Of a DNA stretch of 64,000 nucleotides, positions 4,854 through 49,562 are shown piece after piece; position 1 is the first letter of the stretch, and each line of letters begins with the position of its first letter. The stretch comes from an uncultured Gammaproteobacteria bacterium. Its GTDB lineage: Bacteria; Patescibacteriota; Patescibacteriia; Magasanikbacterales; GCA-002688135. The position numbers and the translations under genes are program-made. The stretch spans positions 1,982 to 65,981 of the forward strand of contig CAZHVT010000002.1 of the NCBI GenBank assembly GCA_964536205.1, given 5' to 3'. The notes under the pieces were generated by a model that made no database searches, was not told the origin of the DNA, and saw nothing but the letters and a program-made list of their open reading frames with translations.

Positions 4854-7208
4854 ATGACACAATCAGCTCTCGCAAGACGAATACAAGAACAAGTCGGACT
4901 GGCGATCGAACATCTGCCGCTACGATCAATGCATTTCGATGCAGAGGTTCGTGGGTTGCATGTTGGTGTACGTGTTACACAGACATTCAAAAACACACTC
5001 GACAATCCTGTGGAGGCGATTTACGTTTTTCCAATGGTTCCACAAGCTGCTGTGCTTGGTGCAAAACTGAAGATTGGAGACAAAACGATCGAATCAGAAT
5101 TGCGTAAGCGCGAAGATGCGCAAAAAGCATATGCTGAAGCTCGTGATGCTGGTCATCATGCGGCGATGGTAGGGCAGGAGCGTCCTAACATTTTCACTAT
5201 GTCTGTTGCAGGTGTTGAGCCTGGCGAGCAGATCAGTGTGGATATTCATTACATCGCGCCGGTCGACTGGCAAGATGGTGGTGGGCGCTTGCAGATTCCG
5301 CTTGTGGTTGCGCCGCACTTTGTGCCGGGGCATGCGACTGGAAAAACCGGTGGGGGATTTTCTATGGATACCGATGAGGTTCCTGATGCATCTCGCATTA
5401 CACCCAAATCGGTTCCAGAGGTGAGTTACAGCGCATCGCTTAAGTTGTCGCTGACTCCAGGATTCGAGGCTAAACTTGGATCTCCATCTCACAGCGCATT
5501 AGTTGTGTGTGACGTTGAACAGATTTGTGAAGGCGACACACGAATCATCGAACTCAACGATCTGCGTTGCGATCGCGATATCGTCATCACATACAAAACA
5601 CAAGATGAGCAGCCGACAATCGCGGTCGAGCGTCAGTCATTCATCACCACAAACGGCGAGACGGATGAACTTACGCTTCTGCAGATCTCCGCTGGATGCA
5701 TCGAAAATGAATCAGAACATCCTCTGGATGTCGCGCTTCTGCTCGACACATCCGGAAGTATGAGAGGTCAGAAAATTAACGGGTTGAAGAAGGTGGCAAA
5801 AAAGCTGCTTACTCGTTTAAGTACATTCAGTCGTCCAGTCCGAGTAACTATTCATCGATTCGCAAATTATTGTGAAGAGTTGTCTAAGTTAGCAGAGGTT
5901 GATGACTCACACTTTGATGTTATCGATCAGCTGGATGCCAGGGGTGGCACAAACGCAGGTCGTGCGATCACGGCAGTGATGGATGTCTTCAGGAGAGAAA
6001 ATAAGTATCATGAAAAATGCATTGTGTTGGTCTGCGATGGGCAGACGGATGACAGGCATTTCAAGGGTCTGGAGGGAGTTCGTATTCATTCTGTCGGAAT
6101 TGATAATGCGATTGACAACGCGACTCTCAAAGAATTTTCTGACATAACTGGAGGATCGTGCGAATGGATTCTGCCAGGCGAGGATTATGATGCAGCAGCT
6201 GCGCGAGTGGCTGGTATGGCATCTGGCCCTGTGCTGCGTGATCTGCAAATCCGTGGCTTGCCCGATAAGGCAAAAGTCGTGAATCTTGGTGATTGCTATC
6301 ATGCACAACCTCGCACGATCGGAATTCTCACTGCAGAGCCTATCGAAGGATGTGTTGTAGTTGGATGTGGTCCGGATGACACGCTATACGAGCGAGCAGT
6401 CCGTGTACCAAAAGAGACAACGACAACTCTCGTAGGTCCGCTATTTGGCAAGATGTTGCTGAACGAGCTTCAGGATCAATCTGTCAAAACTGAAACATCA
6501 CTTCGTTATGGCGTTCTGTGCAGTTCAACTGCGCTCATCGCTGTAAGTAAGAAAGATGTTCCGGGCGCAAAACCGGAAACCATCGACATTCCAGTTCTCA
6601 TGCCACATGGGTGGGAGTATGACGATCGTAGTGAGTTCGCGGTTCGTCGAATGTCAGTTGGTGTTGGTGGTCCAGCTCGCAGACGTAGAATTAGAAGATT
6701 GAGTGCTCAAGGCATTACGAGAAGAGCTATTGCGGGAGATGTTTTGAGCAAAGTATCCTATAGGACAGAAAATGCTGGCCCTCCGCGTCATGCAACCATG
6801 CAAGGCGCAAAGGAAGTCGATACTATCGATTACTCCGATATGTTGGGTGGCGGTTTGCTGGAAGATTCGGCAGGGATTTCAGCTGATGCGGATTCGAAGA
6901 AAGAAAAAGGAACTGCTGGATATTTCATCGAGCAAGCACTAATTCTTCTCAACGCGCTAGAGAATCGTCCGACATCAAAGCCTCTTCATGCACTCCATCA
7001 AGAACTCAAGATGCTAATTGCAGATTCTACGAAGTTCGCTCAATGGAGTGGTGAAGAGAAATCCCAACTCCTTCTGCTGATCGCGCAAATCGGACATGCG
7101 AATCCAGCCTATGCAATCAAGCCCAACGAGGTGTTGTTGCAAGAGCCAGCCGGACAATTCGCTCGACTCCATTGGATGCAGGCCAAGAAAATTCTCGGTC
7201 TCGCATAA
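4854..7208 (+). CDS. VIT (vault/inter-alpha-trypsin) domain + von Willebrand factor A domain protein
   Basis: N-terminal VIT-like region (EAIYVFPMVPQAAVLGAKLKIGDKTIESEL...). vWA MIDAS motif DVALLLDTSGSMRGQK. GC clearly higher than flanking genes. Confidence 0.75.
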   Translation: MTQSALARRIQEQVGLAIEHLPLRSMHFDAEVRGLHVGVRVTQTFKNTLDNPVEAIYVFPMVPQAAVLGAKLKIGDKTIESELRKREDAQKAYAEARDAGHHAAMVGQERPNIFTMSVAGVEPGEQISVDIHYIAPVDWQDGGGRLQIPLVVAPHFVPGHATGKTGGGFSMDTDEVPDASRITPKSVPEVSYSASLKLSLTPGFEAKLGSPSHSALVVCDVEQICEGDTRIIELNDLRCDRDIVITYKTQDEQPTIAVERQSFITTNGETDELTLLQISAGCIENESEHPLDVALLLDTSGSMRGQKINGLKKVAKKLLTRLSTFSRPVRVTIHRFANYCEELSKLAEVDDSHFDVIDQLDARGGTNAGRAITAVMDVFRRENKYHEKCIVLVCDGQTDDRHFKGLEGVRIHSVGIDNAIDNATLKEFSDITGGSCEWILPGEDYDAAAARVAGMASGPVLRDLQIRGLPDKAKVVNLGDCYHAQPRTIGILTAEPIEGCVVVGCGPDDTLYERAVRVPKETTTTLVGPLFGKMLLNELQDQSVKTETSLRYGVLCSSTALIAVSKKDVPGAKPETIDIPVLMPHGWEYDDRSEFAVRRMSVGVGGPARRRRIRRLSAQGITRRAIAGDVLSKVSYRTENAGPPRHATMQGAKEVDTIDYSDMLGGGLLEDSAGISADADSKKEKGTAGYFIEQALILLNALENRPTSKPLHALHQELKMLIADSTKFAQWSGEEKSQLLLLIAQIGHANPAYAIKPNEVLLQEPAGQFARLHWMQAKKILGLA

Positions 7209-10071: not shown

Positions 10072-10893
10072 ATGGGTACTCGAAATCCTCAGTTCGATTC
10101 ATACGACACGATTCACGCTACCATGACAGTGTTGCGGAAAGCAGGTTTGTTCACTGATGGTCTGGATGCGATCCTTCGTAAAAAAGGTAATGCCAAGCGA
10201 GGAGTCGACGCTCTCATGCGCGAGTTCAAGCTCGATGGAGTCAACGAGTTCACACTCGATCTCGAAACGCAACTCGAGCGATTCGCAGAAGCACTCCCAA
10301 AGCTTCGACAGATCGGCTTCACCTTCATGGACAAGTCAGATGAAGAGGTGCTGCGAGAGCTCCGTGAAACAGCACCTGCCTGGCCCGAAGGTAAACGATG
10401 CTTTCGCTTCGTCCAAATCCGCGAGGGTGAGGGTGGCGAAGGTGTGCAAAAGACCTTCGATCTCCATAAGCAAATGATGTCACAAACATTCACACCCAAG
10501 TGGCGGCGCGGGGATCATATCAAAACAGATAAGGATCATCTGCGCCTACTCGCTGGCAACGAAACACACAAGACCTGCTTCGGCTGGGTCTGTGCGGACA
10601 TGGACTCCAACAGGCAGCGCAATTCCATCATTGCAGTGCGTGGAGATAGCTCTCTCGCCGACGAGATTTTGGCCTTCAACTGGCAGTTCCCCGCGTACTG
10701 CAAAGCGATCGATTATAAGGAGAATCCTGGCCTGTTCGCTGCGGGTTACGAGCTTTCAGTCGATGGCTGCGAGGACTGGAGCCATATGCCGCTCATGGGC
10801 CGCGATCTGGACACCGACGAGGTCGACCTGCTCGCCCACCACCGTAGCATCGACAACTCTGTCTACTCTGTGCCGTCTCGTCTCAGGGAGTAA
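10072..10893 (+). CDS. hypothetical protein (GC-rich, no recognisable motif)
   Basis: 273-aa ORF with strong RBS, promoter and terminator. Composition near 50 percent GC against about 35 percent for the backbone. Confidence 0.5.
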   Translation: MGTRNPQFDSYDTIHATMTVLRKAGLFTDGLDAILRKKGNAKRGVDALMREFKLDGVNEFTLDLETQLERFAEALPKLRQIGFTFMDKSDEEVLRELRETAPAWPEGKRCFRFVQIREGEGGEGVQKTFDLHKQMMSQTFTPKWRRGDHIKTDKDHLRLLAGNETHKTCFGWVCADMDSNRQRNSIIAVRGDSSLADEILAFNWQFPAYCKAIDYKENPGLFAAGYELSVDGCEDWSHMPLMGRDLDTDEVDLLAHHRSIDNSVYSVPSRLRE

Positions 10894-12059: not shown

Positions 12060-13538
12060 ATGCGTAAAACAATGGAATATGTCGATATTGTCGGCAAGCG
12101 ACATGAAGTAAGGTGGAGCGAGTTATTGGAGGCAATTGAGCGCGTTCGTGCTTTGTTCTCTTCCGTGAAAAGGCGTTTTGTTGAAAGAGAGTCGGTCATT
12201 GATCAAATCAAACATGCCATGCTGTTGCGTGAGCATATTTTGATCAACGGACCATCTGGCGCAGCGAAGTCAATGTTGATTCGAGCGATTACCAAGGCGA
12301 TTACCAATGCTCGATTGTGGTCAATGGACTTGACTCGTTTTACGACAAACAGTCAGGTGTTTGGTGGATACGATGCTCGTCAGCTTCGTGAAACGGGACA
12401 CTCTATTCATTTGACCGAGTTTTCAGCCGCCGATGCACACTTCATTCAATTGGGTGAATTTTTCGATGCGCCTCCGCCAACACTACGAACGCTTCTCGGG
12501 TTGCTCAACGAGCGACGCATTAGAAATGGTCCGCAGTTGATCGAGCCGCCGCTGTTGACGGCGATTGGCGATACAAACTTCTCAATGGAAATGCTGACCG
12601 AAAAAAGTCAGCAGCAGCTGGCCGCAGTAGTGGATCGCTTCCTGTTCAGGGAAGAGGTTGATTATGTGGTCGAGCCAGCAAATCGACGTCAGATGCTCGC
12701 GATGAGTTTGGATCCCCGGGTCCAAGACAAACTTCCACAAGTATCACTCGATGATATTGTGATGATTTCTGGAGTCGTGAAAGGAATGAATCTGATGCTC
12801 GATCCGTACATCATCGATGCATATGAGGAGATGACTCGTCGGTACAGCGCATTGCGTCAAGAGAAAGGCGGCTTGAGAGTTTCAGATCGGCGCTATGTAC
12901 GCGGTGCACAGATCATGGAAGTTTCCGCGTTATTGCATGGTCGACAGGCGGTTACATTTGAGGATTTGGCGATTACGCGCTATGTGCTCGCTCACAATGA
13001 AAATGATGTTGATATGCTCATCGAGATCAAGAAGGGTGTTATTGGCACATGGGTAAAACGCGCATCTCGTCGTGAAATTGAATCTGAACTACATCGTCTC
13101 GCACAGGTCATAAAAGATCTACCAAAGAGTGATAACGTTGATATTGAATCCATGAAGCTGGATGAACTGAAGGCATTTGCATCTCAATTAGAAAAGATGC
13201 AAAGCTCGCTTCAAGAATTCAAAACAGATTCGCTTGAGGTGGGGCAAAAAGTTGCCGAGTGGACACGGGCGATTCTAGCTTTGCAACATCAAGCCGTGCA
13301 TCACGGAATTTCACTCATCGAACAGATGATTCCAGAGACGACAACGAACATGAGTGCTGAAACTGTGGGACCGGTTGGAAAGCAGGTGAATATAGCGCTG
13401 AATGAGTTGCGTAGTGTTCCAACACTAAGTGATGACTTAATTGTTCGTCAGTCTGAAGTGATGGTAAAGGCGTTGCAAGCTCGACATAATGTAGATTCTT
13501 CGATGGAGAATCTCGGTGTTGTGAGTAAGGAGGGCTAG
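12060..13538 (+). CDS. MoxR-like AAA+ ATPase with C-terminal coiled-coil extension
   Basis: Walker A ILINGPSGAAKS, MoxR-type LLTAIGDTN (the ATQNP-equivalent) and sensor region RVSDRRYVRGAQIMEVSALLHGRQAVTFEDL. The translated sequence is GC-richer than the backbone. Confidence 0.65.
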   Translation: MRKTMEYVDIVGKRHEVRWSELLEAIERVRALFSSVKRRFVERESVIDQIKHAMLLREHILINGPSGAAKSMLIRAITKAITNARLWSMDLTRFTTNSQVFGGYDARQLRETGHSIHLTEFSAADAHFIQLGEFFDAPPPTLRTLLGLLNERRIRNGPQLIEPPLLTAIGDTNFSMEMLTEKSQQQLAAVVDRFLFREEVDYVVEPANRRQMLAMSLDPRVQDKLPQVSLDDIVMISGVVKGMNLMLDPYIIDAYEEMTRRYSALRQEKGGLRVSDRRYVRGAQIMEVSALLHGRQAVTFEDLAITRYVLAHNENDVDMLIEIKKGVIGTWVKRASRREIESELHRLAQVIKDLPKSDNVDIESMKLDELKAFASQLEKMQSSLQEFKTDSLEVGQKVAEWTRAILALQHQAVHHGISLIEQMIPETTTNMSAETVGPVGKQVNIALNELRSVPTLSDDLIVRQSEVMVKALQARHNVDSSMENLGVVSKEG

Positions 13539-14570
13539 ATGGATCCTATTACGTTTTGGTTGTTAATGTCTGGCTTAGGAGGAGCTGGAGCTGCAGGAGC
13601 GGCTCTGTTGTATCGGTTGATGAAAGGTCCGAGACTACCTGAATTACCTCCAATGCCAGAACCAAAACCACCGGAAATTCCTGTAAGACAGGATGGTATT
13701 ATCGATGCAGAGGAGCTAGAAGAAGAGGAGGATGACTCTTTATTGAGCGACAAGGATGTCGTGAAGCAGATTGTTGGTGGCATAGGTTTTTCCGCGCAGT
13801 ACGTGCAGGTTGGCGAGCGAGTTGTCGGACAACGTTTTCTCGGTTATCGAGAAGAAGAATCTATATATCCTGATGACGACATGACAGTTCGACCAATACG
13901 AGATGTAGCTGAGATGGCTTCATTATTGGGCAGCGAGAATGCGCAAGATGATGATATATTGTACGCACGCATTGCACGTGGGGAAGCACTCGTTACAGCT
14001 TACACAACACAAGAAGAAGTGTTTGAAGATGTACACGAGCCAGTTATGGAAGCTCGGCGCAGAACACTGTATATTCTCCTTGATCTTTCGCCATCCATGT
14101 TTCCAAAACACTCTCGTTGGAGATGGAAGATTTGGGGACCGCTTGTGCTGATGCTTCTACAAAAAGCATTTCAAAATCAAGTTGTGTTTTTGATGAGGTA
14201 TTTTGGCGGAACGGTTTCAAAGTTGATGCGCGCCGTATCACAAGAAGAAGTTGCGAAACTTGAGCGATCTATCAGAAGTGCACAATGGATCTCCTCAACA
14301 GATATAACTGCTGCGGTATACACGGCACTACGGGATTTTGATGATGAAGAATACGACAATGCACAAGTTGTATTGATCACAGACGGGGAGCACAATCAGG
14401 GGACATTCAATCCATCGAAAGTGCGTAAGGCTTTTGATGATCGTAATGTCACATTACATGCGATCTTGCTCGGCGTTAAGAATGACGGATTGAGACAAGC
14501 TGCGCACAGTTACGTGCAAGTTGATCATCATGATCGCAGGGGATTATTTACCATAATCAATCAAGTATAA
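13539..14570 (+). CDS. membrane-anchored von Willebrand factor A domain protein, partner of the MoxR-like ATPase
   Basis: N-terminal TM helix plus Pro-rich linker. MIDAS motif LYILLDLSPSMF with downstream vWA-like beta-alpha pattern (VVLITDGEHNQG). Start abuts the stop of 12060-13538. Confidence 0.65.
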   Translation: MDPITFWLLMSGLGGAGAAGAALLYRLMKGPRLPELPPMPEPKPPEIPVRQDGIIDAEELEEEEDDSLLSDKDVVKQIVGGIGFSAQYVQVGERVVGQRFLGYREEESIYPDDDMTVRPIRDVAEMASLLGSENAQDDDILYARIARGEALVTAYTTQEEVFEDVHEPVMEARRRTLYILLDLSPSMFPKHSRWRWKIWGPLVLMLLQKAFQNQVVFLMRYFGGTVSKLMRAVSQEEVAKLERSIRSAQWISSTDITAAVYTALRDFDDEEYDNAQVVLITDGEHNQGTFNPSKVRKAFDDRNVTLHAILLGVKNDGLRQAAHSYVQVDHHDRRGLFTIINQV

Positions 14571-15106: not shown

Positions 15107-15976
15107 CTAGGAAAGTTTGACCTCTTTCCATTTGTCGCTGTCAGAATCACGCTTGTACAATCGAATGTACGAGCTTGTTTTTTCACTGCGCAGGCTGCGA
15201 CTCAAAAGGTGTTGCGCCTGCTTGAGTTCGGGGAAAACATCGGCATCAATGCTGATCGAAAGGAATCGATACAGATCCGGGCCGACTTTGAACGAAACAC
15301 GCTCGACGAGAATGTTTTCAAGAATCTCGATCAGAGCACGAGCTCTATCGTCTTCTTCATCCTGTCGCGTTTTGGCAAATCGATCAAAGAACTTGTTGAT
15401 TTGCTCTCTGGCTTCGTGAGCCAAAGTTGTATCGATGCGCGAGATATGGTTCACCAGCGCGACAACGCGACGCAAACCATCTGTACTCGTGAGTGAAATC
15501 TGTGATCGAAGTGATCCATCTTCATTGGTCAGCATGTCATAGACATTCGCTGTCAGAAACTCGTTTCGTGCGCGGAATGCTTCTACAACTTGATCATTGA
15601 GAGCAAACACTTGCGTCACGATATCATCCGTTCGACGATCAACATTCTCAAGTCGCGCAATGAGTACAGCGAGTTCAGTTCGCTGCTTCTGCAATTCAGC
15701 TTCTGATGCAGTGATATCTGCCCGGGCTGCATCACGTTCTTTCGTAAGTTCAACTGTCTCAGTTGACCAAGAATTAATAATATCTTTCAACCGTTGTGCA
15801 CGTTGCGTCGCGGTATTTTTCAGTCCAGCGAGTGATGCAGCAGCACCCAAGAACCGCTGGTATTTCTTAGTCCATTTCGCACGAGACTTTGCCTCTTTGT
15901 TGCGTAATCTCTCAAGAGATTTTTCAGTTGCGGCAATCGCGCGCTCCAACTGCTTTCGCATTTTTGCTGGCGTCAT
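15107..15976 (-). CDS. hypothetical coiled-coil protein
   Basis: 289-aa ORF, highly charged with heptad-like E/K/R/L pattern. No enzymatic motif. Confidence 0.45.
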   Translation of the reverse strand: MTPAKMRKQLERAIAATEKSLERLRNKEAKSRAKWTKKYQRFLGAAASLAGLKNTATQRAQRLKDIINSWSTETVELTKERDAARADITASEAELQKQRTELAVLIARLENVDRRTDDIVTQVFALNDQVVEAFRARNEFLTANVYDMLTNEDGSLRSQISLTSTDGLRRVVALVNHISRIDTTLAHEAREQINKFFDRFAKTRQDEEDDRARALIEILENILVERVSFKVGPDLYRFLSISIDADVFPELKQAQHLLSRSLRSEKTSSYIRLYKRDSDSDKWKEVKLS

Positions 15977-16316: not shown

Positions 16317-18812
16317 ATGGCAATAGCAAATCGAATCCCAATGCCATCTCATGAGGGGAGAAAAGAAGATGGTGAGCACAGATCGCGTGAGGCACAAGGA
16401 GCGCCAGTTGAAAGATTTCGACAAATCGTAAAATTATCTCCGAAGGTGTATGAGGAGTTAGTTGTGATTGAAAACGAAGTTGAATTGCCAAGCGAAATAA
16501 ATGAAGAGGATTGGGAGGGCGTGGATTTTTATGAATACATGGAGACAGTTCGAGTTGAAGAAGAGATGACGGAAATTGAACACAAAATTTTTACAACATA
16601 TGCATTAGAAGAAGTTGAGAGAATTACAGAATTATTGGCTGATGATTATGAAGAGGAGTTGATTGATGAATTAGAAGCAAGATATGGAGTTCCAAAAGAG
16701 GAAATCATGCATATACTTCTGGAGGAAAAAGGATTGTTGGGAGATAATGATGCGACATACATTGTTGTTGAAGCTGTAAAAGCTCGATTGCAAAATCGGG
16801 TAGAAGAGCGTCAAGGAAGAGAGAAAATGCCTACTGCTCAGGAGAGAGCTGAATTAGATGAATTGCGTGAAATTAATAAACAGATGAAGGAGGAGCAAAA
16901 AGAGAGGGAGCAAGATCACCGACGAGAACAAACACTCAGTATGATCGATGATCTATTTGAAAGTTTGCCAGAAAGAATCAGAGAAGAAGATCAGGTGCAA
17001 TTCGAGTCGCTGGAAAAAGTTTATAGCGATACATTGCAAGAAGGAATAAAAGATGACGAAGCACAGGAAAATCAAGACAGATTATTTACAGAAATTCTTG
17101 TCGAATTAAGGAGGATGGAAGAGTTGGCAGCACAAGAGAGGGGTGAGGAGGCAGAATATCAACCACCAATTTCCGATAGAGATCCTGGTTATGTTCGTCA
17201 GATCATAAATCGCATAGCTGATTCACGAGCAGGTAGATATCTTGCGGTTGGGATTGAGGGATTAAAATTGGTATATGGGGCAGCAGCAATAGGTCAAGAA
17301 GCGCATGGTATGGCATTTGGATCAGATGAGATAGTCGAAGTATCAACAAGAGGTGGTGATCTAACAGATAAAATAACTTCCGGATCTGGAAGAGCGGTTA
17401 CAGTTAAGGGCGCACCTGCAATTGCAGCACATGATGCCCAGCGTAGAGGCACAGAAACTTATGAGGATAGGGTTGAGATCACACCACAAGCTCCAAAGTC
17501 AGAAACAATATATGGTGAGCAAGAAGTAAGTCATGCAACATTGCATTTCGATACCATGCCAATGTCACCAGATTTTAAAGTTAAGGGCCATGAGAAATTT
17601 ATTGATGCAGGTCCGCTCATTGAATATATTCGCGGACAAATAGAAGGAAGAGAGGATTTAGAAGGACAGAAAATTGACATTCAATTAGAAGGACGCGCTT
17701 CAATTGATGCGCGAAGATGGGCGTATGAAAAAAATGAGAAGTTGGCAGGAAAGCGAGCTGAAATGGCAAAATTGCAAATTGAACAATTACTTGCAAAAGC
17801 ATTTCCGGGAGTTGAGATTAATATTACAATTGCTGATGGCGCGGCAACAGTTGAGTTGGATGGACAGAAATTGACTCATGAGCAAGCAAGGGAGCAAATG
17901 AAACTATTATTGGGCGTAACATCTGAAAAAGATTTACAAAAGAAATTGCGGCAGTTTAGAGCGGGGGATATGACAGGATTTGATGCCGCACAAATTGCAG
18001 CAATGGAGCAGGTTGTCACAAATGCACGTGGTGTGTTAATGGATATTACATTCACGGGGCAATCAGTAGTTGAATCTGAAAGAAGTGTGCCTCAGCCAGA
18101 CGAAGTGAAGGTTGTGAGAACAATGACAGATGGAGCGCAGCGAAGAGGAAGAAGAGATGGAGAGCCAACTCCAGACCTACCCCCAACACCACCAGAGCAA
18201 GGTCAGGCTCCAGCAGAAATTTTAACAGGTCATCGCATGGATCCCGTCATTAAAGAAGAATTTGATGATACAAAAGCTCCAGAAACAGAAATGACACAAG
18301 AACCTGTGCCTGGCGATAATCCAGATACATACATTAGAGAAAATCAGCAGGATATTCACGAGATAACAAATCAATTAGAACGGACAAGATATATACGTCG
18401 TGCGAGAAGAAAGATTGATGATGTTGTGGATCCACCACCCCCACCGCCACCTCCACCGCCTCCACCACCAGAACCAGAATACAGGAGAGCCCAAGGACAA
18501 CAATCCGTAGAACTCGGGCCAATGAAAACAGAACGAGTTAATTTACGCACACAGGGAGTGGATGAGAGGGATGAAATACAATTTTCCGGTTCTGTAAATC
18601 AGGATTCAGGAATGGGAACATCCAGCAGAAGAAGGGAAAAGCAGATTAGATACGACGAATTTGGAGATGTCATTCCTCCAGATAAAGAACAGCCAATAGC
18701 TCGTGTACAAAGAGAAAAGGGTAGGGATCGCCAAGCTTCAGAAAAACAAAAAGCACGAGAACTGCGCCGAGCACGCCGACAAAGACGACGAGAAGAGAGA
18801 GGAGAAAATTAG
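16317..18812 (+). CDS. large (831 aa) highly acidic, Glu-rich low-complexity protein with a poly-proline tract and an Arg-rich C-terminus
   Basis: Uninterrupted ORF. A run of 13 consecutive Pro codons at about 18426-18470. No catalytic motif recognised. Confidence 0.55.
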   Translation: MAIANRIPMPSHEGRKEDGEHRSREAQGAPVERFRQIVKLSPKVYEELVVIENEVELPSEINEEDWEGVDFYEYMETVRVEEEMTEIEHKIFTTYALEEVERITELLADDYEEELIDELEARYGVPKEEIMHILLEEKGLLGDNDATYIVVEAVKARLQNRVEERQGREKMPTAQERAELDELREINKQMKEEQKEREQDHRREQTLSMIDDLFESLPERIREEDQVQFESLEKVYSDTLQEGIKDDEAQENQDRLFTEILVELRRMEELAAQERGEEAEYQPPISDRDPGYVRQIINRIADSRAGRYLAVGIEGLKLVYGAAAIGQEAHGMAFGSDEIVEVSTRGGDLTDKITSGSGRAVTVKGAPAIAAHDAQRRGTETYEDRVEITPQAPKSETIYGEQEVSHATLHFDTMPMSPDFKVKGHEKFIDAGPLIEYIRGQIEGREDLEGQKIDIQLEGRASIDARRWAYEKNEKLAGKRAEMAKLQIEQLLAKAFPGVEINITIADGAATVELDGQKLTHEQAREQMKLLLGVTSEKDLQKKLRQFRAGDMTGFDAAQIAAMEQVVTNARGVLMDITFTGQSVVESERSVPQPDEVKVVRTMTDGAQRRGRRDGEPTPDLPPTPPEQGQAPAEILTGHRMDPVIKEEFDDTKAPETEMTQEPVPGDNPDTYIRENQQDIHEITNQLERTRYIRRARRKIDDVVDPPPPPPPPPPPPPEPEYRRAQGQQSVELGPMKTERVNLRTQGVDERDEIQFSGSVNQDSGMGTSSRRREKQIRYDEFGDVIPPDKEQPIARVQREKGRDRQASEKQKARELRRARRQRRREERGEN

Positions 18813-18890: not shown

Positions 18891-19721
18891 ATGCCAAATC
18901 AAGAAAAAGTAACGAACATAAGCACATCCGTAAACAAACAGATGGGGAAATGGAAATATCCGTGGTGCGGCATGTGGATCATATTACCATTTATTTTGTG
19001 GTGGGAGGCTTCACAAACACACTGGGGGGAAGAATTTCCATTCATAACCATAGCAATCGGTGCGGTATTGGTTATATATATCGCACAGATTACAAAAAAA
19101 GTCCGCATACAGTTCTGGAAAGATTTCGCACACAAACATGGTTGGACATATTCGGACAAAGGTAATGCGTCTGGCGAAAAAGCACTGCTACTCTCACAAG
19201 CGAAAAGAACGACCATGCAGCATGTCATTGACGGAACATTTGAAGATCGGCCCATGAGAATTTTCGAAATGGCATTTACGATTGGATCAGGAGACGATGC
19301 AGTAACATACAACTACACGGTATTTGAATTCACTATGAAGGGTGCATTCCCTCACATCTATCTAGATAAAAAAAGCAATCAGTATAAAGCAAATACCGGA
19401 AGTGTGGGCGTGCGAATTCCATTACCATCCGAATTTGCAAAAAAATATAATTTGTATGCACCGGAGCAATATGAGATTGAGGCATTAGAAGTATTTAATG
19501 AAGATGTAATGCAGTACATTTTGAATGAAGAATTTCCACATGATGTTGAGATTGTAGATGCAGAAGTTTTAATTTTCCGAGATCATCACATCAACACAGC
19601 TGAAGAATTAGAAAAAGAATATGAAGGGGCTACAAAATTATTACAAAAAATTGAGAAGCGGTTGGATCGAAGTAAGCTGTATAAGATTGGCGACAAACCA
19701 CACGAAATGAAATACAAATAG
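18891..19721 (+). CDS. hypothetical membrane-anchored protein
   Basis: Two N-terminal hydrophobic segments (WIILPFILWW, ITIAIGAVLVIYIAQI) followed by a soluble domain. Confidence 0.45.
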   Translation: MPNQEKVTNISTSVNKQMGKWKYPWCGMWIILPFILWWEASQTHWGEEFPFITIAIGAVLVIYIAQITKKVRIQFWKDFAHKHGWTYSDKGNASGEKALLLSQAKRTTMQHVIDGTFEDRPMRIFEMAFTIGSGDDAVTYNYTVFEFTMKGAFPHIYLDKKSNQYKANTGSVGVRIPLPSEFAKKYNLYAPEQYEIEALEVFNEDVMQYILNEEFPHDVEIVDAEVLIFRDHHINTAEELEKEYEGATKLLQKIEKRLDRSKLYKIGDKPHEMKYK

Positions 19722-23180: not shown

Positions 23181-23214
23181 TAAAAAACCTCCGATGTATA
23201 CTCGGAGGTTCGCT

Positions 23215-23844
23215 TTATACAGCACTGTATTTTTTGACGATAGGAATCAGGCTGTCATTTTGAGCCCAAAAGATCTTTGCGAAAGCATCAAAAGTCGGAC
23301 GACAAGATTCGGGAATAAGTTGGGAACATCGCTCAAACATCGGAGTAAACTCTCGACGAGTTTCAGTAAACTGTTTTTCGATGAACTCAAGATCGTCGGG
23401 CGGAAGCGATCGCAAGTTATGCAATCGATCACACATTTTGATGCGCATGACTTGCCAGCTCGAGCGTGTAAGTAGCCGCTCGTAGTATCCTTCTTTGGGA
23501 AGTTTGGAAAGTTGCAAAACCATACGGCACGTTCGCTTTCCCAAGAATTGTTCGATCAATTCAGGAGTGATGGTTGTATCCTCAAGCGAATCGTGAAGGA
23601 GTGCGGCGCAAATTTCATCAACATCCATACAGCCAGCCTCATCAATATCGATGAGAGCTACTTGTCGAACATGTTCGAAATATCGGATGTGATTCCCATC
23701 ATCATCCACACCCTTGCGCGTATCAAATCGATGATAGTGCTTCGCAAGAACATACGCGAGCTCCACCCGTCGCACATCGGAAGGCGCCAGCAATGGAGTG
23801 AGTCGTGCAAGGAACGTAGCTTTGTTTTCTTGTGTATCTGTCAT
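23215..23844 (-). CDS. HD-domain hydrolase, small alarmone ((p)ppGpp) hydrolase-like
   Basis: RelA/SpoT-type HD motif ALLHDSLEDT with upstream His (YFEHVRQVA). About 210 aa with no synthetase domain. Confidence 0.6.
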   Translation of the reverse strand: MTDTQENKATFLARLTPLLAPSDVRRVELAYVLAKHYHRFDTRKGVDDDGNHIRYFEHVRQVALIDIDEAGCMDVDEICAALLHDSLEDTTITPELIEQFLGKRTCRMVLQLSKLPKEGYYERLLTRSSWQVMRIKMCDRLHNLRSLPPDDLEFIEKQFTETRREFTPMFERCSQLIPESCRPTFDAFAKIFWAQNDSLIPIVKKYSAV

Positions 23845-23900
23845 GGTAAACCTCTCTGAATGGTTAAGAATATATCAGAAATTAGGGCGGCCGTCAATAG

Positions 23901-23929
23901 TTGACAGATGTGATATTCAACGATAGTGT
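23901..23929 (+). promoter_or_regulatory. sigma70-like promoter TTGACA-N17-TAGTGT for the vWA/FHA cassette, overlapped by palindrome GTCAATAGTTGAC
   Basis: Read directly. RBS GGAGG lies 7 nt before the ATG at 24018. Confidence 0.45.
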
Positions 23930-24017
23930 AGAAGTACAGTCCAAAAGATACAATCACTTATCTTGGGAGACTGGTTTACGGCCCGGGAGAAATCCCACCA
24001 GAGGCTGGAGGTGACAA

Positions 24018-25262
24018 ATGGCACAACTTTGTGTCCAAACTATCTATGGGCAGGATCCTGCGTATGCAGATCCACGAACTGGAACCCTGGTGAACGCCAT
24101 CGTGCGGATCACTCCTGAAATCCCGGATGTGAGTACACCACTCAACATCATCTGGGTGCAGGATCGGTCTGGATCGATGAAAGGCGAAAAGCTGAAGCAG
24201 AGCAAGACTGTTCTGAAAAAGCTGATCGACGGTCTTGATAGAAATGACCGTGCGGGTGTGATTGCGTTCAATCAAGAACATGAGATCATCGCCCCTCTCA
24301 AGACGATGCGTGCACATTACAGGCGGATGGCAAAGATCGCTGTAAAGCGGATGGGGGCGAAGGGTGCAACTCGACTGTCAGCTCCGCTGCTTGAAGCGGT
24401 GAGTCTGAAAGATGAGGAGTCACAGATTCCTCGTACGGTTGTGATGCTGACTGACGGTCTTTCACAATGTGGCAGTGTTAAACATGATGAAGAGCAACTC
24501 ATCCGAGCTGCTCAAAAGCTCTATCGGGAAGGTGGACGTCTGATCATGATTGGGATTGGCGCAGATTACAATTCAGATCTTCTGGAGCGTGTCTGTGAGG
24601 CTGGACCAGATTTCGAGATGTTCCATGTCTCCACAACAAATCCTGCGGAAATCGATGAAGTCACGCGGGAGGTGATGTGTGAACTTCGCTCTGCTTCGAT
24701 TGGTAATCTTCAGATTGCTGGTCAAGTTGCGCGTGGTGTCGAACTCAAAAGTGTGACATCATTCACGCCAACGCAGCGCCCTCATGAAGTGAAGCGCGGA
24801 AAGTTCTCTATCAATTCAGGTTCGCTTTCAAAGCATCGAGGTCAGCATCTGCTGTTCGAGATGTTGGTGAAAAATCCGAAAGTCGGATCGAGGAATCTCA
24901 TGACACTTGCAATGAAAGGTGTCAGAAGAGGTGATTCAGTCGAAGAGATCAGTATGTCACACGTACTCTCTTTGAGATTCACGACTAATCCAAAAGATGC
25001 AGTCAAGCAGACTGAAAAAGAAGTCCAAGACTGCATCATTCGCGCTGAAGCTCATCGAAAGATGAAAAACAAGCTGTACGATGTTGCGGCACATCTCTAT
25101 GAGATGATCGGCGATACATTCATGGCGCAGCAGGCTAGAAAAGCTGAGCGTCAGGCTGCGCGAGGTGGTCTCGAGGCAATCGACGCTCACCGAACCATCA
25201 CGACAGGCTCTGTGGGAAGCACACGAGCTGTGTCTCGCGACTGGTCGACAAGGGAGTGTTAA
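24018..25262 (+). CDS. von Willebrand factor A domain protein (414 aa)
   Basis: MIDAS motif IIWVQDRSGSMKGEK with downstream VVMLTDG. The C-terminal 200 aa are unassigned. GC-rich. Confidence 0.65.
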   Translation: MAQLCVQTIYGQDPAYADPRTGTLVNAIVRITPEIPDVSTPLNIIWVQDRSGSMKGEKLKQSKTVLKKLIDGLDRNDRAGVIAFNQEHEIIAPLKTMRAHYRRMAKIAVKRMGAKGATRLSAPLLEAVSLKDEESQIPRTVVMLTDGLSQCGSVKHDEEQLIRAAQKLYREGGRLIMIGIGADYNSDLLERVCEAGPDFEMFHVSTTNPAEIDEVTREVMCELRSASIGNLQIAGQVARGVELKSVTSFTPTQRPHEVKRGKFSINSGSLSKHRGQHLLFEMLVKNPKVGSRNLMTLAMKGVRRGDSVEEISMSHVLSLRFTTNPKDAVKQTEKEVQDCIIRAEAHRKMKNKLYDVAAHLYEMIGDTFMAQQARKAERQAARGGLEAIDAHRTITTGSVGSTRAVSRDWSTREC

Positions 25263-25263
25263 G

Positions 25264-25902
25264 ATGAAAGATGCACTCTTTACGCAAGTTGTCTGCAGGA
25301 AATGCAGTACGGAAAATCGGGTTGGTGCGGTGCTGTGCGAGAATCAAGATTGTCGTGCTGTATTGCAAGCTCGTCGTATTGTAACCCAAGACGCTGATCC
25401 AGATGCTGATCTCGGTCCTGTAACAATGCCAGAAGCGTCATCTGCGGACATCGACAACAATGATGATATACCTCGATTTGTTGTCATCGAAAATGATGGC
25501 GTCAGCATTCTGGAAGCAGCGAAGTTTGAAGCGCATATTCCACTGATTCGGCTTTTTGATAAGGATATGATCAGTATCGGAAGACGCGCACGACCACATC
25601 CTGATTTCGAGCCACACATGGATTTCGGTTTTCTCTTCTACAATTGGACTGAAGGGAGAGACTATCCTATTTCTCGCAAAGGAGCTTTGTTGTATGGCGA
25701 GAAAGGAACATTGAAATTGCGACGTGTGGGACGAGCTCCAATTCGTGTGCGGAGACAGGGGAAAGGCAAGGCGCTGGCTTTGCAAAAATATGTCACAATT
25801 AAAGTCGAGAACGGCGATGTGCTGTGTTTCGGCAATCTCACGAACCACTTTAAAGTAGTGATTCGTGGTGTGACGCAAGAGATTCTTGATGATCTAGATT
25901 GA
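25264..25902 (+). CDS. zinc-ribbon + FHA (forkhead-associated) domain protein
   Basis: N-terminal CxxC-N14-CxxxxC (CRKCSTENRVGAVLCENQDC). C-terminal FHA-like pattern ISIGRRA ... ISRKGALL ... NGDVLCFGN. Starts 2 nt after the vWA stop. Confidence 0.55.
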   Translation: MKDALFTQVVCRKCSTENRVGAVLCENQDCRAVLQARRIVTQDADPDADLGPVTMPEASSADIDNNDDIPRFVVIENDGVSILEAAKFEAHIPLIRLFDKDMISIGRRARPHPDFEPHMDFGFLFYNWTEGRDYPISRKGALLYGEKGTLKLRRVGRAPIRVRRQGKGKALALQKYVTIKVENGDVLCFGNLTNHFKVVIRGVTQEILDDLD

Positions 25903-25922
25903 GCTCTAAGGAGTCTCAATAT

Positions 25923-25949
25923 GCCGCCCGTAACTCGGGCGGTTTTTTA
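25923..25949 (+). terminator. intrinsic terminator (CCGCCCG-TAACT-CGGGCGG + T6)
   Basis: Read directly. Confidence 0.6.
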
Positions 25950-26042
25950 TTTTATTTAACTCAAATTATACACAAATGAATCATCCCGCGCCTTATATCT
26001 TAGTGTAGAACATACACTAAGTAAGTTACGAGTAAAAAAGGG

Positions 26043-26095
26043 TTGACAAGGATGTGGGGAATTGATATGTTGATTGGCCTTATCGATAGTATAAT
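26043..26095 (+). promoter_or_regulatory. promoter region with TTGACA (26043) and TAGTATAAT (26087-26095)
   Basis: Possibly tandem promoters. The spacing to TATAAT is suboptimal, so confidence is low. Confidence 0.35.
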
Positions 26096-26164
26096 GATGA
26101 GGAAAACGACTTATGTATTGAGTCGTAAACGATCATTAAACCTCGTGCAAAAAGGGAGAAGCAC

Positions 26165-27496
26165 ATGGCTGATGAAAAGAAAACAACAACCAAGAAACCA
26201 GCAAAGAAAAAGAAACCAGATTATCCGGAGCGATGGGCCAATGTGATCGGAGCTTTTGCGAAGTCACTTGGTTCGGATCTTGAGGCGATGACGCCGGTAC
26301 TGGCCTCTCTGGCCGGCGAACCGAGCGATGAAGCGCTGGAGACTCTCGCAAACAGCGGGTATGTCTCTGACGAGCTCATCCGGGAAGCTCTCGGAAATGC
26401 AGGATTGAAGGTTGGCGAAAGCGTGCCGATCGGCGTGTTCAACAAGAACCTCGCCGCTCTGCGAACTGCATGTGCACCCGCCGCACCTACTGCACCTACT
26501 GCACCAGCACCCACCGCCGATCTTTTCGGTGGCGGTGTTGGCTCGTACGACATTCTGCCGAACGTCCCCGAAGACAGCGTGAGCCTGCTTAGCAAGCTCA
26601 CGATCGGTGGCGAACTCAAGGTGGATGAAGTTTCTGTTCTGTGCGCCGCTCGAGCATTGCTCGCACAGCGAACTGGCGTTCGAGACGTGCCCGGAAAGCT
26701 GATCGATCTCATGGATGCGCATGCAGACGACGTCACTGCAGAGCCGTTCACAACGGCAATGTATGATGTGTACGAAACGGTCGAGAAGATCAAGAATCGT
26801 CGGTCTCATGGGGATATCCTCAAGGCTGTCGGTGTGCCCGGAAGTTTTGCAAACGCGAAGCGGAAGAGGCAGTTCCTCGAGCGTGTTGAAAAGCATCTTG
26901 TTCCCGGACTCTTCGAGTTCCGAAGCACGGTCAAGAGCTGGCAGGATTCGTATCTTGCTGCAGGCGCCAATCCCATGCAGATGATGCAGGTGATCGCGGC
27001 TGTCGTGCAGCGATTGCCGGTGCCGGGAGGGATGGCGCCACCCGACACCGCGATGATTCGCGATGCGGCGCTGTCGTTCAACGATGCGGCCAACAAAACG
27101 TTCGCCGGTTCCGGCATTCCTTGTGCTCGTGCACTCGCTCACGATGTGATCGAGATCCACGGGCTGCTCGATCTCGATCTTCTGCCTTTGGCATGCGGAT
27201 TCACGACGCGTGACCAGTTGCTCAAATCGCTCAAGATCAATGCGAGTCGAACCGATGAGCGCAACGAGCACGCGCTGGCTCGCTACATCATCTCGGTCAT
27301 CCGCATGAAGGACGTTGCGCCGGGTCATTCGGAGCTTGCGTACGTCAATGCACTGACTATGCTCGACACGCAGATCAAGTGGGATTCGCTGGGTCTCGCT
27401 GGAAGAGGAACGCCCGGCTTCATCGATCGCGCGAGCGGATCCGGTCCGTTGTCCGACAAGGGCAATGGTGGCTCGTCCAGCCGCTATCCGCGGTAG
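26165..27496 (+). CDS. hypothetical protein, very GC-rich (443 aa), Lys-rich N-terminus, Ala/Pro linker (PAAPTAPTAPAPTAD)
   Basis: Long ORF with RBS AAAGGGAG. A 413-aa antisense ORF is open opposite it, as expected for high-GC DNA. No motif recognised. Confidence 0.5.
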   Translation: MADEKKTTTKKPAKKKKPDYPERWANVIGAFAKSLGSDLEAMTPVLASLAGEPSDEALETLANSGYVSDELIREALGNAGLKVGESVPIGVFNKNLAALRTACAPAAPTAPTAPAPTADLFGGGVGSYDILPNVPEDSVSLLSKLTIGGELKVDEVSVLCAARALLAQRTGVRDVPGKLIDLMDAHADDVTAEPFTTAMYDVYETVEKIKNRRSHGDILKAVGVPGSFANAKRKRQFLERVEKHLVPGLFEFRSTVKSWQDSYLAAGANPMQMMQVIAAVVQRLPVPGGMAPPDTAMIRDAALSFNDAANKTFAGSGIPCARALAHDVIEIHGLLDLDLLPLACGFTTRDQLLKSLKINASRTDERNEHALARYIISVIRMKDVAPGHSELAYVNALTMLDTQIKWDSLGLAGRGTPGFIDRASGSGPLSDKGNGGSSSRYPR

Positions 27497-27506
27497 ATCC
27501 ATCACG

Positions 27507-27534
27507 GAGTATCTAAGGATACTCCGTTTTTTTA
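27507..27534 (+). terminator. intrinsic terminator (GGAGTATC-TAAG-GATACTCC + T7)
   Basis: Perfect 8-bp stem followed by a T-run. Confidence 0.6.
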
Positions 27535-29461: not shown

Positions 29462-31534
29462 ATGCACAATCAACTCGAAAACAATCCACACGAAAGTGGG
29501 CCAAACCAGGGAATGACTCCAGCTAAATGGGCGCTCGTCGGAGTCGCTGCGATAATTGGAATCGCCACGATTGTCGGTGGAGGTTTTTATATCGGGAAAA
29601 AAGTAGCCGAGCGAGACACAGTAACTACAAAAAAAGAAGGAAAAACAATCACTCCAAAGAAAACAGTTCAAGAAGATCCAGAGCTTGGATTTCCTGTGGT
29701 TGGTGAGCCACTGGGTTCATACAAATTTAAAGTATGCAAGCAACTTCCTGATAACAACACCGTGTATGCGGTGACATCCAGATTTGCACAACATGAACCT
29801 TTTCATGTGATATACGACGAACATTCAAATCAACTTCAAATCGATGAAGAATTTTATCCTATTACGCGTTTTCATGGCGATGAGAGTGCATCAATTGTAG
29901 ATTGCAAGTTAACAACAGAAAAATACTTTTTATCCGTAGTTGATGCTGAATTACCAGAAATACAAGTAAGAACATCGAAGCCTGAACCATCAGAACCGGA
30001 AGATGAGAAAAAAAATTCAGAGCAGGTTGTTACAGAAGTTCATGGTGCAAAAATACAACTTGAAGATATTACGTGGCAAGATAGGACAGAAGTAGAGCAA
30101 TCGCTGGTACTGAACAATCCAGAGCATTATACAGCGTACAAGGTTGGTATGGTTAATTCCGGCGAGTTCGCGGGATATGAATTGCATTACACAAATGTAC
30201 CGTGTGAATGTATGATCGGATATCCACCATGGGTGATGCTTAAAAAAGGTGATGAGCTCCGCGTTCTCAAAGAATATTCTGTAGATTCCGGACCGGATTT
30301 TGCATATAACGATAGGTTTAATTCGTACATCTTAGATCATCGACTTACTATTTCAGATTTAGTTGCTCCATACAGTATTGAATTACCGGATCTCAACACA
30401 ACATTAAAGCAGGAACGTGTTCGATTATCTGATCATAACACTGAGATACTTTTTGATGCTGCAAACATGGAGTTGTGGCGACCACACCCAGAAGTTGGAA
30501 ACATATATGTAGAAAAAACTCATCGCACCGGAGCATTTATTCTGAAAATGCCAGACGGTACAGTAGCGGAATATTCGTACCAAATCCCATTTCAAAAGGC
30601 AGATACGACAAGTGTGAGTTTTGGTGAAGTGCAAAATTTTGTGGCGTATGAGCATGGTAGTGTGGGAGGCTGTGGTTGGATGGGGTATGCTGACGTAGTA
30701 AAAGCAGATGAGGTAAGTATTCCAAAGGATCTCAAAAAAATTGGGGAAATAAATTCTGGCATCGCAACTGAAATTACCCAACGTAATATTCTCGGATACA
30801 ATGACCCACAGCATCCGCAGTTACAAGAGTTATATGGCAACAGGTCAGGTTTCGCCGAAATCACAACTGGGAAAGAGTTGAGTTATGAAGAGTATCTCGC
30901 GTTGAACCCAGTATTCTTCTGGGTAGATCCATTCGGGCGTCTAACAAGATTTATTCATCCCGCGCTGCAAGTGATGGCAGAATGTGGTAAGCCAGTAATT
31001 TATCTATATCCGAAAGAAACAACAGATGTGTCAGTGCAAGTATATCCAAATGGCGGATTCACATTCACAGAGCCAGATTATGGAAGAGGGTGGAATGTAA
31101 CGGCGCAGCCGAATGGACAACTCACAAACCACGCAGATGGAACGCAGTGGCCATATCTGTTTTGGGAAGGTCATGGTGAATCGAATGTTCCGGTTGAGAC
31201 CAGAGGATTTGTTGTGAAGGCAAGTGAAGTAGAATCAATGCTTGAAGATAAATTAGGACAACTTGGATTAAACAAACAAGAAACTGCAGATTTCAATGAA
31301 TTCTGGGTACCAAAAATGCAGCACTATCCATATTATTTCGTGACATTCTACACAAACGAATTTTTGGATTCATTAGCGCCGTTAAAAGTTAATCCACAGC
31401 CAGACTCAATTATCAGAATCATGATGGATTACAAACCACTCATGCGACCAATCCGCGTACAAGAATTGCCGATAGTCACACCAGAACGAGATGGGTTTAC
31501 ACTAGTTGAGTGGGGAGGGGTTCTGCGAAAATAA
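29462..31534 (+). CDS. hypothetical protein (690 aa), N-terminal TM anchor
   Basis: Single TM helix after a short cytoplasmic N-terminus. No recognisable domain. Confidence 0.45.
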   Translation: MHNQLENNPHESGPNQGMTPAKWALVGVAAIIGIATIVGGGFYIGKKVAERDTVTTKKEGKTITPKKTVQEDPELGFPVVGEPLGSYKFKVCKQLPDNNTVYAVTSRFAQHEPFHVIYDEHSNQLQIDEEFYPITRFHGDESASIVDCKLTTEKYFLSVVDAELPEIQVRTSKPEPSEPEDEKKNSEQVVTEVHGAKIQLEDITWQDRTEVEQSLVLNNPEHYTAYKVGMVNSGEFAGYELHYTNVPCECMIGYPPWVMLKKGDELRVLKEYSVDSGPDFAYNDRFNSYILDHRLTISDLVAPYSIELPDLNTTLKQERVRLSDHNTEILFDAANMELWRPHPEVGNIYVEKTHRTGAFILKMPDGTVAEYSYQIPFQKADTTSVSFGEVQNFVAYEHGSVGGCGWMGYADVVKADEVSIPKDLKKIGEINSGIATEITQRNILGYNDPQHPQLQELYGNRSGFAEITTGKELSYEEYLALNPVFFWVDPFGRLTRFIHPALQVMAECGKPVIYLYPKETTDVSVQVYPNGGFTFTEPDYGRGWNVTAQPNGQLTNHADGTQWPYLFWEGHGESNVPVETRGFVVKASEVESMLEDKLGQLGLNKQETADFNEFWVPKMQHYPYYFVTFYTNEFLDSLAPLKVNPQPDSIIRIMMDYKPLMRPIRVQELPIVTPERDGFTLVEWGGVLRK

Positions 31535-49130: not shown

Positions 49131-49562
49131 ATGGAGGGAAAAATGTCAGGGAAACATGTGAGAACAGGTGCTGAAGAGCGAATTAATTGTGAGGATTGCA
49201 AAGGGACATGCATAGTCCCGAACACTGAATTCGTGGATTGTGGGGAGTGCGGCGGTGTACCGAATGTCTGCGATGTGTGTGAAGGTGGCGGGCAACTTGA
49301 GGGAGATGATGGCTTCGCGGAAGATTGCCACAAGTGTAGTGGAAGTGGTAAGAGGCGATACAAGTGCAAGCCATGCGGTGGCACAGGAAAAATCGAGCGC
49401 GAGGGCGATGGGACGCCTTGTCATGAGTGCATGGACATGGGAAGCGCCTGTAGCTTCTGCGAGGAGTTCGAGTGTAGTGGTTCGCCGTACTGCCAGAACT
49501 GCAATGAGTGTGGACACTCATGTAGCTGTCCCGAAGGCCAGCGAATCGAAGCCGAATTCTAG
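49131..49562 (+). CDS. cysteine-rich protein with multiple CxxC / CxxCxGxG zinc-finger-like repeats (143 aa)
   Basis: 24 Cys. Repeats CEDCKG, CGEC, CDVC, CHKCSGSGK, CKPCGGTGK, CHEC, CSFC and CQNCNEC. Strong RBS AAAGGAGG, promoter-like TTGACA upstream, GC-rich. Confidence 0.5.
   Translation: MEGKMSGKHVRTGAEERINCEDCKGTCIVPNTEFVDCGECGGVPNVCDVCEGGGQLEGDDGFAEDCHKCSGSGKRRYKCKPCGGTGKIEREGDGTPCHECMDMGSACSFCEEFECSGSPYCQNCNECGHSCSCPEGQRIEAEF

Follow-up and report, generated by a model that had tools for sequence, protein, structure and literature searches.

Genes of the locus

The DNA analysed here, hereafter the window, is a stretch of 64,000 nucleotides from an uncultured bacterium that was deposited as a gammaproteobacterium and is placed by GTDB in the Patescibacteriota, lineage Magasanikbacterales (GenBank assembly GCA_964536205.1, contig CAZHVT010000002.1, positions 1,982 to 65,981). 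The Candidate Phyla Radiation (CPR, or Patescibacteria) consists of mostly uncultured bacteria with tiny genomes, and clues to how they perceive their host or nutrient state are scarce, conserved gene blocks of unknown function being one of the few. We studied one such block of three genes, g1, g2 and g3, which encode a von Willebrand factor A (vWA) protein, a zinc-ribbon protein with a predicted forkhead-associated (FHA) fold and a protein without assignment. The pair g1-g2 has the two-protein architecture of ArnB-ArnA, an archaeal phosphorylation-dependent module, and probably works in a similar way. The three same-strand open reading frames lie exactly where a sequence-only reading of this DNA had drawn them. 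In the list of open reading frames they are:

24018-25262, plus strand, g1, 414 aa
25264-25902, plus strand, g2, 212 aa
26165-27496, plus strand, g3, 443 aa

The three genes are also found together in two other lineages, represented by loci L005/L013 and L011.

Resemblance of g1 and g2 to ArnB and ArnA

The vWA domain read in g1 was confirmed by PF00092 (residues 43-207, E=1.5e-18), and its MIDAS (metal ion-dependent adhesion site) is complete, with D49, S51, S53, T118 and D146 all invariant in the three orthologues. The domain is preceded by an N-terminal stub of ~40 residues and followed by a beta-rich middle region (~208-330) and a helical C-terminus (~331-385), both judged by eye. Beyond these lies a conserved Ser/Thr-rich tail (HRTITTGSVGSTRAVSRDWSTREC) in which H391, R392, T395, T396, S401 and R403 are invariant. 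Inspection of the sequence revealed no apparent signal peptide or transmembrane segment, and g1 is apparently cytoplasmic. Among PDB entries ArnB (8s05_A) was the second match of the single g1 sequence (E=3.1e-6) and the top match of a three-sequence g1 profile (E=3e-9), with residues 30-204 of g1 co-linear with 28-190 of ArnB; in both proteins an equally long stub of ~28 residues precedes the alignment at the N-terminus. The same profile also matched the ArnB paralogue vWA2/ArnE (E=1.2e-3), co-linear from residue ~25-30.

ArnB-ArnA is a phosphorylation-dependent module for repression of motility in Sulfolobus acidocaldarius, with structures 8S05, 5A8I and 5A8J in the PDB (PMC6509490, PMC12852372). 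Entry 8S05 is the ArnA/ArnB co-crystal, the 387-aa chain of which matches ArnB; the phospho-threonines of ArnB that are read by the FHA domain of ArnA sit in the C-terminal region, and ArnA carries the cysteines C21, C24, C35 and C38 in a RanBP2-type zinc finger (PMC12852372). ArnAB of Sulfolobus responds to starvation, and the three-domain plan of ArnB is widespread, bacteria included (PMC12852372).

The second protein starts with a C4 zinc ribbon, which an acidic linker connects to a C-terminal domain of predicted FHA fold (~68-212). Of its two domains as proposed from sequence, the ribbon stood and the FHA domain could be recovered at fold level alone. C11, C14, N18, C25 and C30 are invariant in the alignment, including all four cysteines (C-x2-C-x3-N-x6-C-x2/4-C), and support from hidden Markov models (HMMs) for this ribbon is weak (L40e zinc ribbon, E~0.08). 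No FHA domain was detected in g2 by searches of Pfam, NCBIfam and PADLOC or of the PDB with a single sequence and a four-sequence profile. In an AlphaFold model built from a three-sequence alignment, residues ~68-212 form a reasonably confident beta-sandwich (pLDDT 70-86), for which many FHA domains were among the fold matches. The C-terminal domain is thus predicted to adopt an FHA fold, with the predicted structure as its sole support. The dipeptides G106-R107 and S137-R138 are invariant in the g2 alignment. GR and SR are the two loop motifs with which FHA domains bind phosphothreonine, and their Arg and Ser are the residues most critical for that binding. The stretch between them (residues 110-135) holds the invariant pattern P-H-P-D-x-E-P-H-M-D-F-G-F-L-F-Y and is far longer than a usual FHA loop; it could be a lineage-specific interaction surface, and residues 127-137 are poorly modelled (pLDDT<50).

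The sequence-only reading recognised no named system in this architecture. We find that of ArnB-ArnA: in both cases an adjacent gene pair encodes a vWA protein of ~400 aa (414 aa for g1, 387 aa for ArnB) with an intact MIDAS and a Ser/Thr-bearing C-terminal region, and a protein of ~210 aa in which a linker joins an N-terminal C4 ribbon (identical C-x2-C-x10-C spacing, with a RanBP2-type Asn) to an FHA fold at the C-terminus. The differences are that the host here is a CPR bacterium and not a member of the Thermoprotei, that the vWA gene comes first, and that g1 is similar by sequence in its vWA core only. ArnB has an eight-stranded beta-sandwich that the vWA domain splits, two strands preceding it and the others following, and a regulatory helical bundle (ArnB_C) at its C-terminus with the threonines that are phosphorylated; counterparts of both would be putative in g1. 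ArnB is a substrate of ePK kinases, and binding of its FHA partner depends on this phosphorylation. In addition, the predicted FHA domain of g2 carries the 30-residue conserved insert (MDFGFLFY) and no Asn was identified in it; there is neither an ArnC/ArnD-type kinase nor PP2A near g1-g2, and no archaellum; and the pair has extra conserved neighbours, namely an HD hydrolase gene and g3. Two bacterial vWA proteins of ArnB architecture, one from Catenulispora acidiphila (PDB 4FX5) and YfbK of E. coli (PMC12852372), likewise carry additional domains C-terminal to their vWA domain. They are less similar to g1 than ArnB is (4fx5_A was a weak sequence match, E=0.0065), and no zinc-ribbon-FHA partner has been described for them.

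Several observations weigh against a shared function. The likeness of g1 to ArnB is significant for the vWA core only (~20-25% identity): a profile of the C-terminal half of g1 found no match in the PDB, the Pfam family ArnB_C (IPR040929) did not match g1 at E<0.1, and the pairing by HMMER of g1 367-407 with ArnB 332-371 was non-significant. ArnB is barely ahead of ITIH4 with the g1 profile (39.6 vs 37.6 bits). The g2 model has a mean pLDDT of 58 with the zinc ribbon poor or unmodelled, and among its fold matches ArnA appeared only at rank 10. The canonical FHA Asn was not identified in the g2 alignment, and the 30 extra residues that part the GR motif from the SR motif are unusual for an FHA domain. 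No PP2C and no Pkinase turned up among the scanned genes of the 64-kb window, whose only kinase-type gene is of the CotH family (atypical protein kinase; 51453-53150, plus strand, 565 aa, PF08757 E=2e-19), ~25 kb from g1-g2.

Some of this would be expected if the likeness were superficial or convergent, with g1 a generic adhesion or assembly vWA protein of ITIH/BatA type and g2 an FHA-resembling beta-sandwich that does not bind phosphate groups on proteins. ITIH4 and ITIH1 score nearly equal to ArnB, TIGR03788 (sortase target, vWA part) matches g1 with E=1.5e-22, and the missing Asn would fit as well. The absence of an apparent signal peptide or transmembrane segment from g1, the invariant Arg of GR and Ser of SR, the ArnA-like spacing of the zinc ribbon and the tight translational coupling of g1 and g2 speak against this explanation, which we regard as improbable. 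We favour an ArnAB-like phospho-switch for g1-g2, which we hold with some confidence. A working switch of this type would mean that a vWA-FHA mechanism characterised only in Sulfolobales also runs in bacteria.

Transcription units and regulatory signals

The sequence-only reading had described a single cassette with one promoter. The features around the three genes are as follows:

23185-23211, minus strand, HD gene terminator (intrinsic), 10-bp stem and then a T-run
23215-23844, minus strand, HD_4/SpoT-like small phosphohydrolase gene (209 aa), divergent from g1
23869-23897, minus strand, promoter-like site for HD transcription, TTGACG-N17-TATATT plus TG, placed back-to-back with the -35 element of g1
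23901-23929, plus strand, promoter-like site of g1-g2, TTGACA-N17-TAGTGT, read from the sequence, with a weak -10 element
25923-25943, plus strand, intrinsic terminator of g1-g2, 8-bp stem (7 of the pairs GC) plus T-run
25999-26021, no strand, perfect 9-bp palindrome CTTAGTGTA-GAACA-TACACTAAG, read from the sequence, just upstream of the g3 -35 element
26043-26071, plus strand, promoter-like site of g3, TTGACA-N17-TATGTT with upstream TG, from the promoter scan
27504-27527, plus strand, intrinsic terminator of g3, 10-bp stem and T7 run

The g2 start lies 1 nt past the g1 stop in the window and in L005, and 2 nt past it in L011; with this spacing, g1 and g2 are translationally coupled in one operon. 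Since a terminator follows g2 and a separate promoter lies at 26043, g3 is a transcription unit of its own. The region therefore consists of two units, g1-g2 and then g3, a layout conserved in the two other lineages, and the idea of a single cassette had to be abandoned. The clean hairpin terminators that had been noted were found, one after g2 and one after g3; that of g1-g2 is kept in L005, with one at the equivalent place in L011, and that of g3 has a counterpart in L005 at 6540-6559. As for the g1 promoter, the TTGACA-N17-TAGTGT site is present, but its description as a consensus promoter was too generous: the -10 element has 3 of 6 consensus bases, which puts the site below the threshold of the consensus scanner and kept it off the list of scanned promoters. 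The matching position in L005 reads TTGACA-N17-TAATCT. Counterparts of the g3 promoter occur at equivalent positions in L005 (TTGACG-N17-TATGTT) and L011 (TTGACA-N17-TATGGT).

The divergent gene, previously described as alarmone-hydrolase-like, indeed matches PF13328 (E=2.4e-11) and TIGR00691 (E=9e-13) and contains an HD..ED motif (LLHDSLED). Its product is 77% identical to that of L005 and 58% to that of L011, and in both the gene stands next to g1-g2. This divergent HD gene is conserved in each of the three lineages, and in two of them (the window and L005) the HD and g1 promoters stand back-to-back, which hints at a tie between the locus and nucleotide or alarmone status.

The palindrome at 25999-26021 is partly conserved in L005 and is a possible operator. 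An operator shared by the g1 and g3 promoters was also considered, as the 10-mer TAGTGTAGAA occurs at only two sites in the window, one at the g1 promoter (23924-23933) and the other at the left arm of the palindrome. When the two promoter regions were shuffled 500 times, they shared a word of this length in 37 cases, so the sharing is not statistically significant, and L005 does not preserve the copy at g1; the 10-mer was dropped as evidence for both reasons and the shared operator was rejected. A regulatory RNA in the leaders was likewise rejected, as the only Rfam result was a sub-threshold sroD match that corresponds to the terminator hairpin.

The g3 family and its genomic neighbourhoods

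The Lys-rich N-terminus and Ala/Pro linker described for g3 are present, and the protein remains without assignment. It is all-helical, with an N-domain (~22-103) and a C-domain (~138-410) on either side of the disordered Ala/Pro linker (106-128); the Lys-rich N-tail and a Gly-rich C-tail are specific to the lineage of the window. From 1.84 billion cluster representatives, a profile of four sequences retrieved 328 at E<=1e-3, of which 228 were at E<=1e-30, mostly 380-450 aa long and matched over nearly their full length. In this analysis the family was found in CPR genomes only. A credible Pfam domain was found in 0 of the 79 aligned members, and the family gave no fold match. Conservation falls mostly on Gly, Leu, Pro, Phe and Ala, together with R100, N310 and E368, and no enzymatic motif or effector-like domain was found in g3. 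No Ser/Thr is conserved across the family. With this pattern g3 resembles a scaffold or a partner more than it does an enzyme. A conserved phospho-acceptor was sought in g3 and rejected for the lack of a family-wide Ser/Thr column; T43-x-x-L46 is conserved among close relatives only.

The genomic context of g3 was determined by classifying open reading frames with family HMMs in 31 independent loci, 28 of which lie outside the lineage of the window. Within the DNA fetched for these 28 loci, adenylosuccinate synthetase (PurA) was encoded in 22, a protein of ~620-650 aa with a Pol-beta-type nucleotidyltransferase motif (NTase-620) in 18, and a kinase-like protein of ~280 aa and a vWA-like protein of ~370 aa (DTTGSMG motif) in 16 each; where a gene was absent, the contig mostly ended there. 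Typically the kinase-like gene comes first, then vWA-like, PurA and g3, followed by the NTase gene on the opposite strand (convergent). This canonical block is exemplified by L010 (6359-13093; kinase-like ~286 aa, vWA-like ~367 aa) and was also present in L006, L014, L017, L022-L026, L028-L032 and L036-L038. In L018-L021 the genes are still together in the order g3, kinase, vWA-like or 480-aa protein, PurA. Matches of the kinase-like family include CK2alpha (E=7e-6) and TTK, and its counterpart in L018 gives a Pkinase match above the Pfam threshold, with a second full Ser/Thr kinase nearby. No description of this block was found in the literature searched.

The arrangement HD-g1-g2-g3 was restricted to the window, L005/L013 and L011 among the 31 loci, and all 28 loci outside this lineage have g3 without g1 or g2. 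Both arrangements place the g3 family beside a vWA-type protein and a phospho-signalling component. They differ in that the lineage of the window has the HD hydrolase, the ArnB-like vWA and the zinc-ribbon-FHA protein instead of the kinase-like, vWA-like and PurA proteins, and has no NTase-620 downstream. Kinship between g1 and the alternative vWA-like protein was considered and rejected (hhalign probability 0.3%, MIDAS motif only), a point against the explanation favoured here. In a midpoint-rooted neighbour-joining tree, the window and L005 form a long separate branch. Since loci with the canonical context lie on both sides of the root, the tree suggests that the HD-g1-g2 context is a derived state, although the rooting is uncertain.

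These data also bear on the explanation that the genes are unrelated neighbours, with g1-g2 a self-contained vWA-FHA pair or just adjacent regulators and g3 an independent structural or housekeeping protein of CPR bacteria, perhaps linked to PurA or purines. It accounts well for the terminator (a strong one in the window) and the promoter that separate g2 from g3 in all three lineages, for g3 without g1 or g2 in 28/28 other loci and for PurA being the most frequent neighbour. In the comparison of the window with L005, g3 is 42% identical and its neighbours 57-84%, so that g3 evolves much faster, and it has its own codon bias. Moreover, the three lineages that share the adjacency are related to each other, and the adjacency may therefore be merely inherited. 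The lack of any family-wide Ser/Thr column in g3 is likewise a point against its tie to the phospho-switch. On the other hand, g3 stays with the kinase-like and vWA-like genes despite rearranged order, the sole lineage lacking that pair nearby has another vWA and phospho-reader pair adjoining g3, and the HD-g1-g2-g3 block is kept in L011 while its outer flank is unlike that of the window (the L011 contig ends within g3, which is truncated). We consider it rather unlikely that the genes are unrelated. A functional tie of g3 to g1-g2 is plausible and is put forward tentatively; g3 is the best candidate for a partner or output because each of the two genomic arrangements gives it a vWA protein and a phospho-signalling component as neighbours.

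Proposed mechanism and implications

The explanation that we judge best overall is an ArnB/ArnA-type phospho-switch formed by g1-g2 with g3 as its partner or output, and we give it about as much credence as doubt. In such a switch the N-terminal RanBP2-type zinc ribbon of g2 would tether g2 to g1, and an unlinked Ser/Thr kinase would phosphorylate the g1 tail. The C-terminal FHA domain of g2 would then clamp tightly onto the phosphorylated tail, and clamping may alter the range of partners open to the vWA/MIDAS face or to the zinc ribbon. The protein acted on by these vWA and phospho modules would be g3, as partner or output. A 'reader' pair (vWA and FHA) would thus take the place beside g3 that is held elsewhere by a 'writer' pair (kinase and vWA-like).

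A broader proposal is that g3, a helical protein of new fold, serves vWA proteins under the control of Ser/Thr phosphorylation as partner or output in an undescribed module that extends across CPR lineages, present in most of them in its 'writer' version (eukaryotic-type kinase and vWA-like protein, along with PurA and the large nucleotidyltransferase) and here as a true ArnB-ArnA 'reader' counterpart coupled to the alarmone-type HD hydrolase. We regard this as speculative and unlikely in its full extent. If true, a cellular process specific to CPR bacteria would be tied to nutrient or nucleotide status, and the ArnAB switch would reach beyond Archaea, through ancient inheritance or inter-domain transfer. 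The g3 family is in any case a well-defined 'conserved unknown' (at least 328 clusters) that is persistently linked to kinases, vWA proteins and PurA.

Origin and composition of the locus

The closest relatives of the window are CPR metagenome-assembled genomes (MAGs) labelled Parcubacteria, such as isolate ARS125. The neighbourhood is syntenic in L005/L013, in the order PyrF, a 69-aa open reading frame, HD (opposite strand), g1, g2, g3, Memo/PGA_cap, a 609-aa protein, PPIase and NDH2, with protein identities between the window and L005 from 84% (Memo/PGA_cap) down to 42% (g3). The counterpart of the 609-aa protein in the window has 690 aa (29462-31534, plus strand), no Pfam domain and 65% identity. 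The rest of the window encodes core functions, including TIM, PGI, pyrophosphatase, MetK, PyrF, MsrA, HU, YidC, HrcA-GrpE-DnaK-DnaJ, RecJ and LepA.

A GC content far above the backbone had been attributed to all three genes and taken as a sign of horizontal acquisition. When GC content at third codon positions (GC3) was compared with 56 genes of the window, this held for g3 (GC 0.576, GC3 0.63, z=3.5), was mild for g1 (z=1.5) and did not apply to g2, which is ordinary (z=0.4). The same excess of g3 over its neighbours recurs in L005 (0.54 vs 0.32-0.46), L011 (0.80 vs 0.52-0.60) and L014 (0.62 vs 0.41-0.59), that is, in orthologues at 42-50% identity, and is therefore a persistent property of the gene that does not signal recent import. 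The idea that high GC3 stands for high expression was not adopted, as DnaK in the window has a GC3 of 0.30. Besides g3, the genes at 10072-10893 (plus strand, 273 aa, GC3 0.62) and 49131-49562 (plus strand, 143 aa, GC3 0.54, Cys-rich with many CxxC motifs) are GC3 outliers, both without a Pfam or PHROG match.

Together with the synteny in a related Parcubacteria MAG, this recurrence overturns the inference of horizontal acquisition. A phage or mobile origin was rejected, as PHROG gave no match for g2 or g3 and no relatives of g1, g2 or g3 were found on IMG/VR viral contigs. PADLOC gave no match at E<0.1 for g1, g2, g3 or HD, and the surrounding 64 kb is core housekeeping, contrary to the expectation of a defence island. 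The locus is very probably inherited vertically in a small clade of Parcubacteria and is not a defence island, and it should not be counted as one or as a recent horizontal transfer.

The theme of signalling or conflict proposed for the locus survives in its first half, phospho-dependent signalling being the most plausible role. A horizontally acquired NTP- or phospho-dependent conflict or defence cassette of TerY-P-like or vWA-MoxR-like type, with g3 as a new effector, would agree with the recurrence of vWA and FHA domains in conflict systems, where FHA is sporadic among the effectors of vWA-MoxR systems (PMC7159879), and with g3 being a fast-evolving GC3 outlier. TerY-P (vWA TerY with PP2C and a Ser/Thr kinase) and vWA-MoxR systems do combine vWA with phospho-signalling parts, as g1-g2 would. 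There is also a MoxR gene upstream (12060-13538, plus strand), 10.5 kb from g1 and the nearest to it, which encodes a bpMoxR-type AAA+ ATPase (PF20030, 'MoxR-vWA-beta-propeller ternary systems', E=3.7e-34). However, this gene has its own vWA partner directly after it (13539-14570; 343 aa, weak vWA, E~3e-4; no beta-propeller gene identified adjoining), and a comparison of g1 with that protein was negative. The region of g1-g2-g3 contains no kinase, phosphatase or MoxR gene, as had been stated from sequence, so the adjacent PP2C, kinase or MoxR of the named systems is lacking. The negative PADLOC, PHROG and IMG/VR results, the absence of an enzymatic motif or effector-like domain from g3, the core-chromosome setting with housekeeping flanks syntenic in the related MAG, the GC3 bias common to g3 orthologues and the conserved core context of the g3 family by PurA in many CPR lineages all disagree with a conflict cassette, which we consider highly improbable.

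A few other features of the window were noted. Two large proteins without a Pfam domain are encoded at 16317-18812 (plus strand, 831 aa) and 18891-19721 (plus strand, 276 aa). Just after the MoxR-vWA pair lies a gene for a DUF3164 protein (15107-15976, minus strand, E=1e-6) with raised GC (0.47), which may be a remnant of a mobile element. A third vWA protein of the window is encoded at 4854-7208 (plus strand, 784 aa); it combines VIT and vWA domains, is inter-alpha-trypsin-inhibitor-like and has a somewhat raised GC of 0.49.

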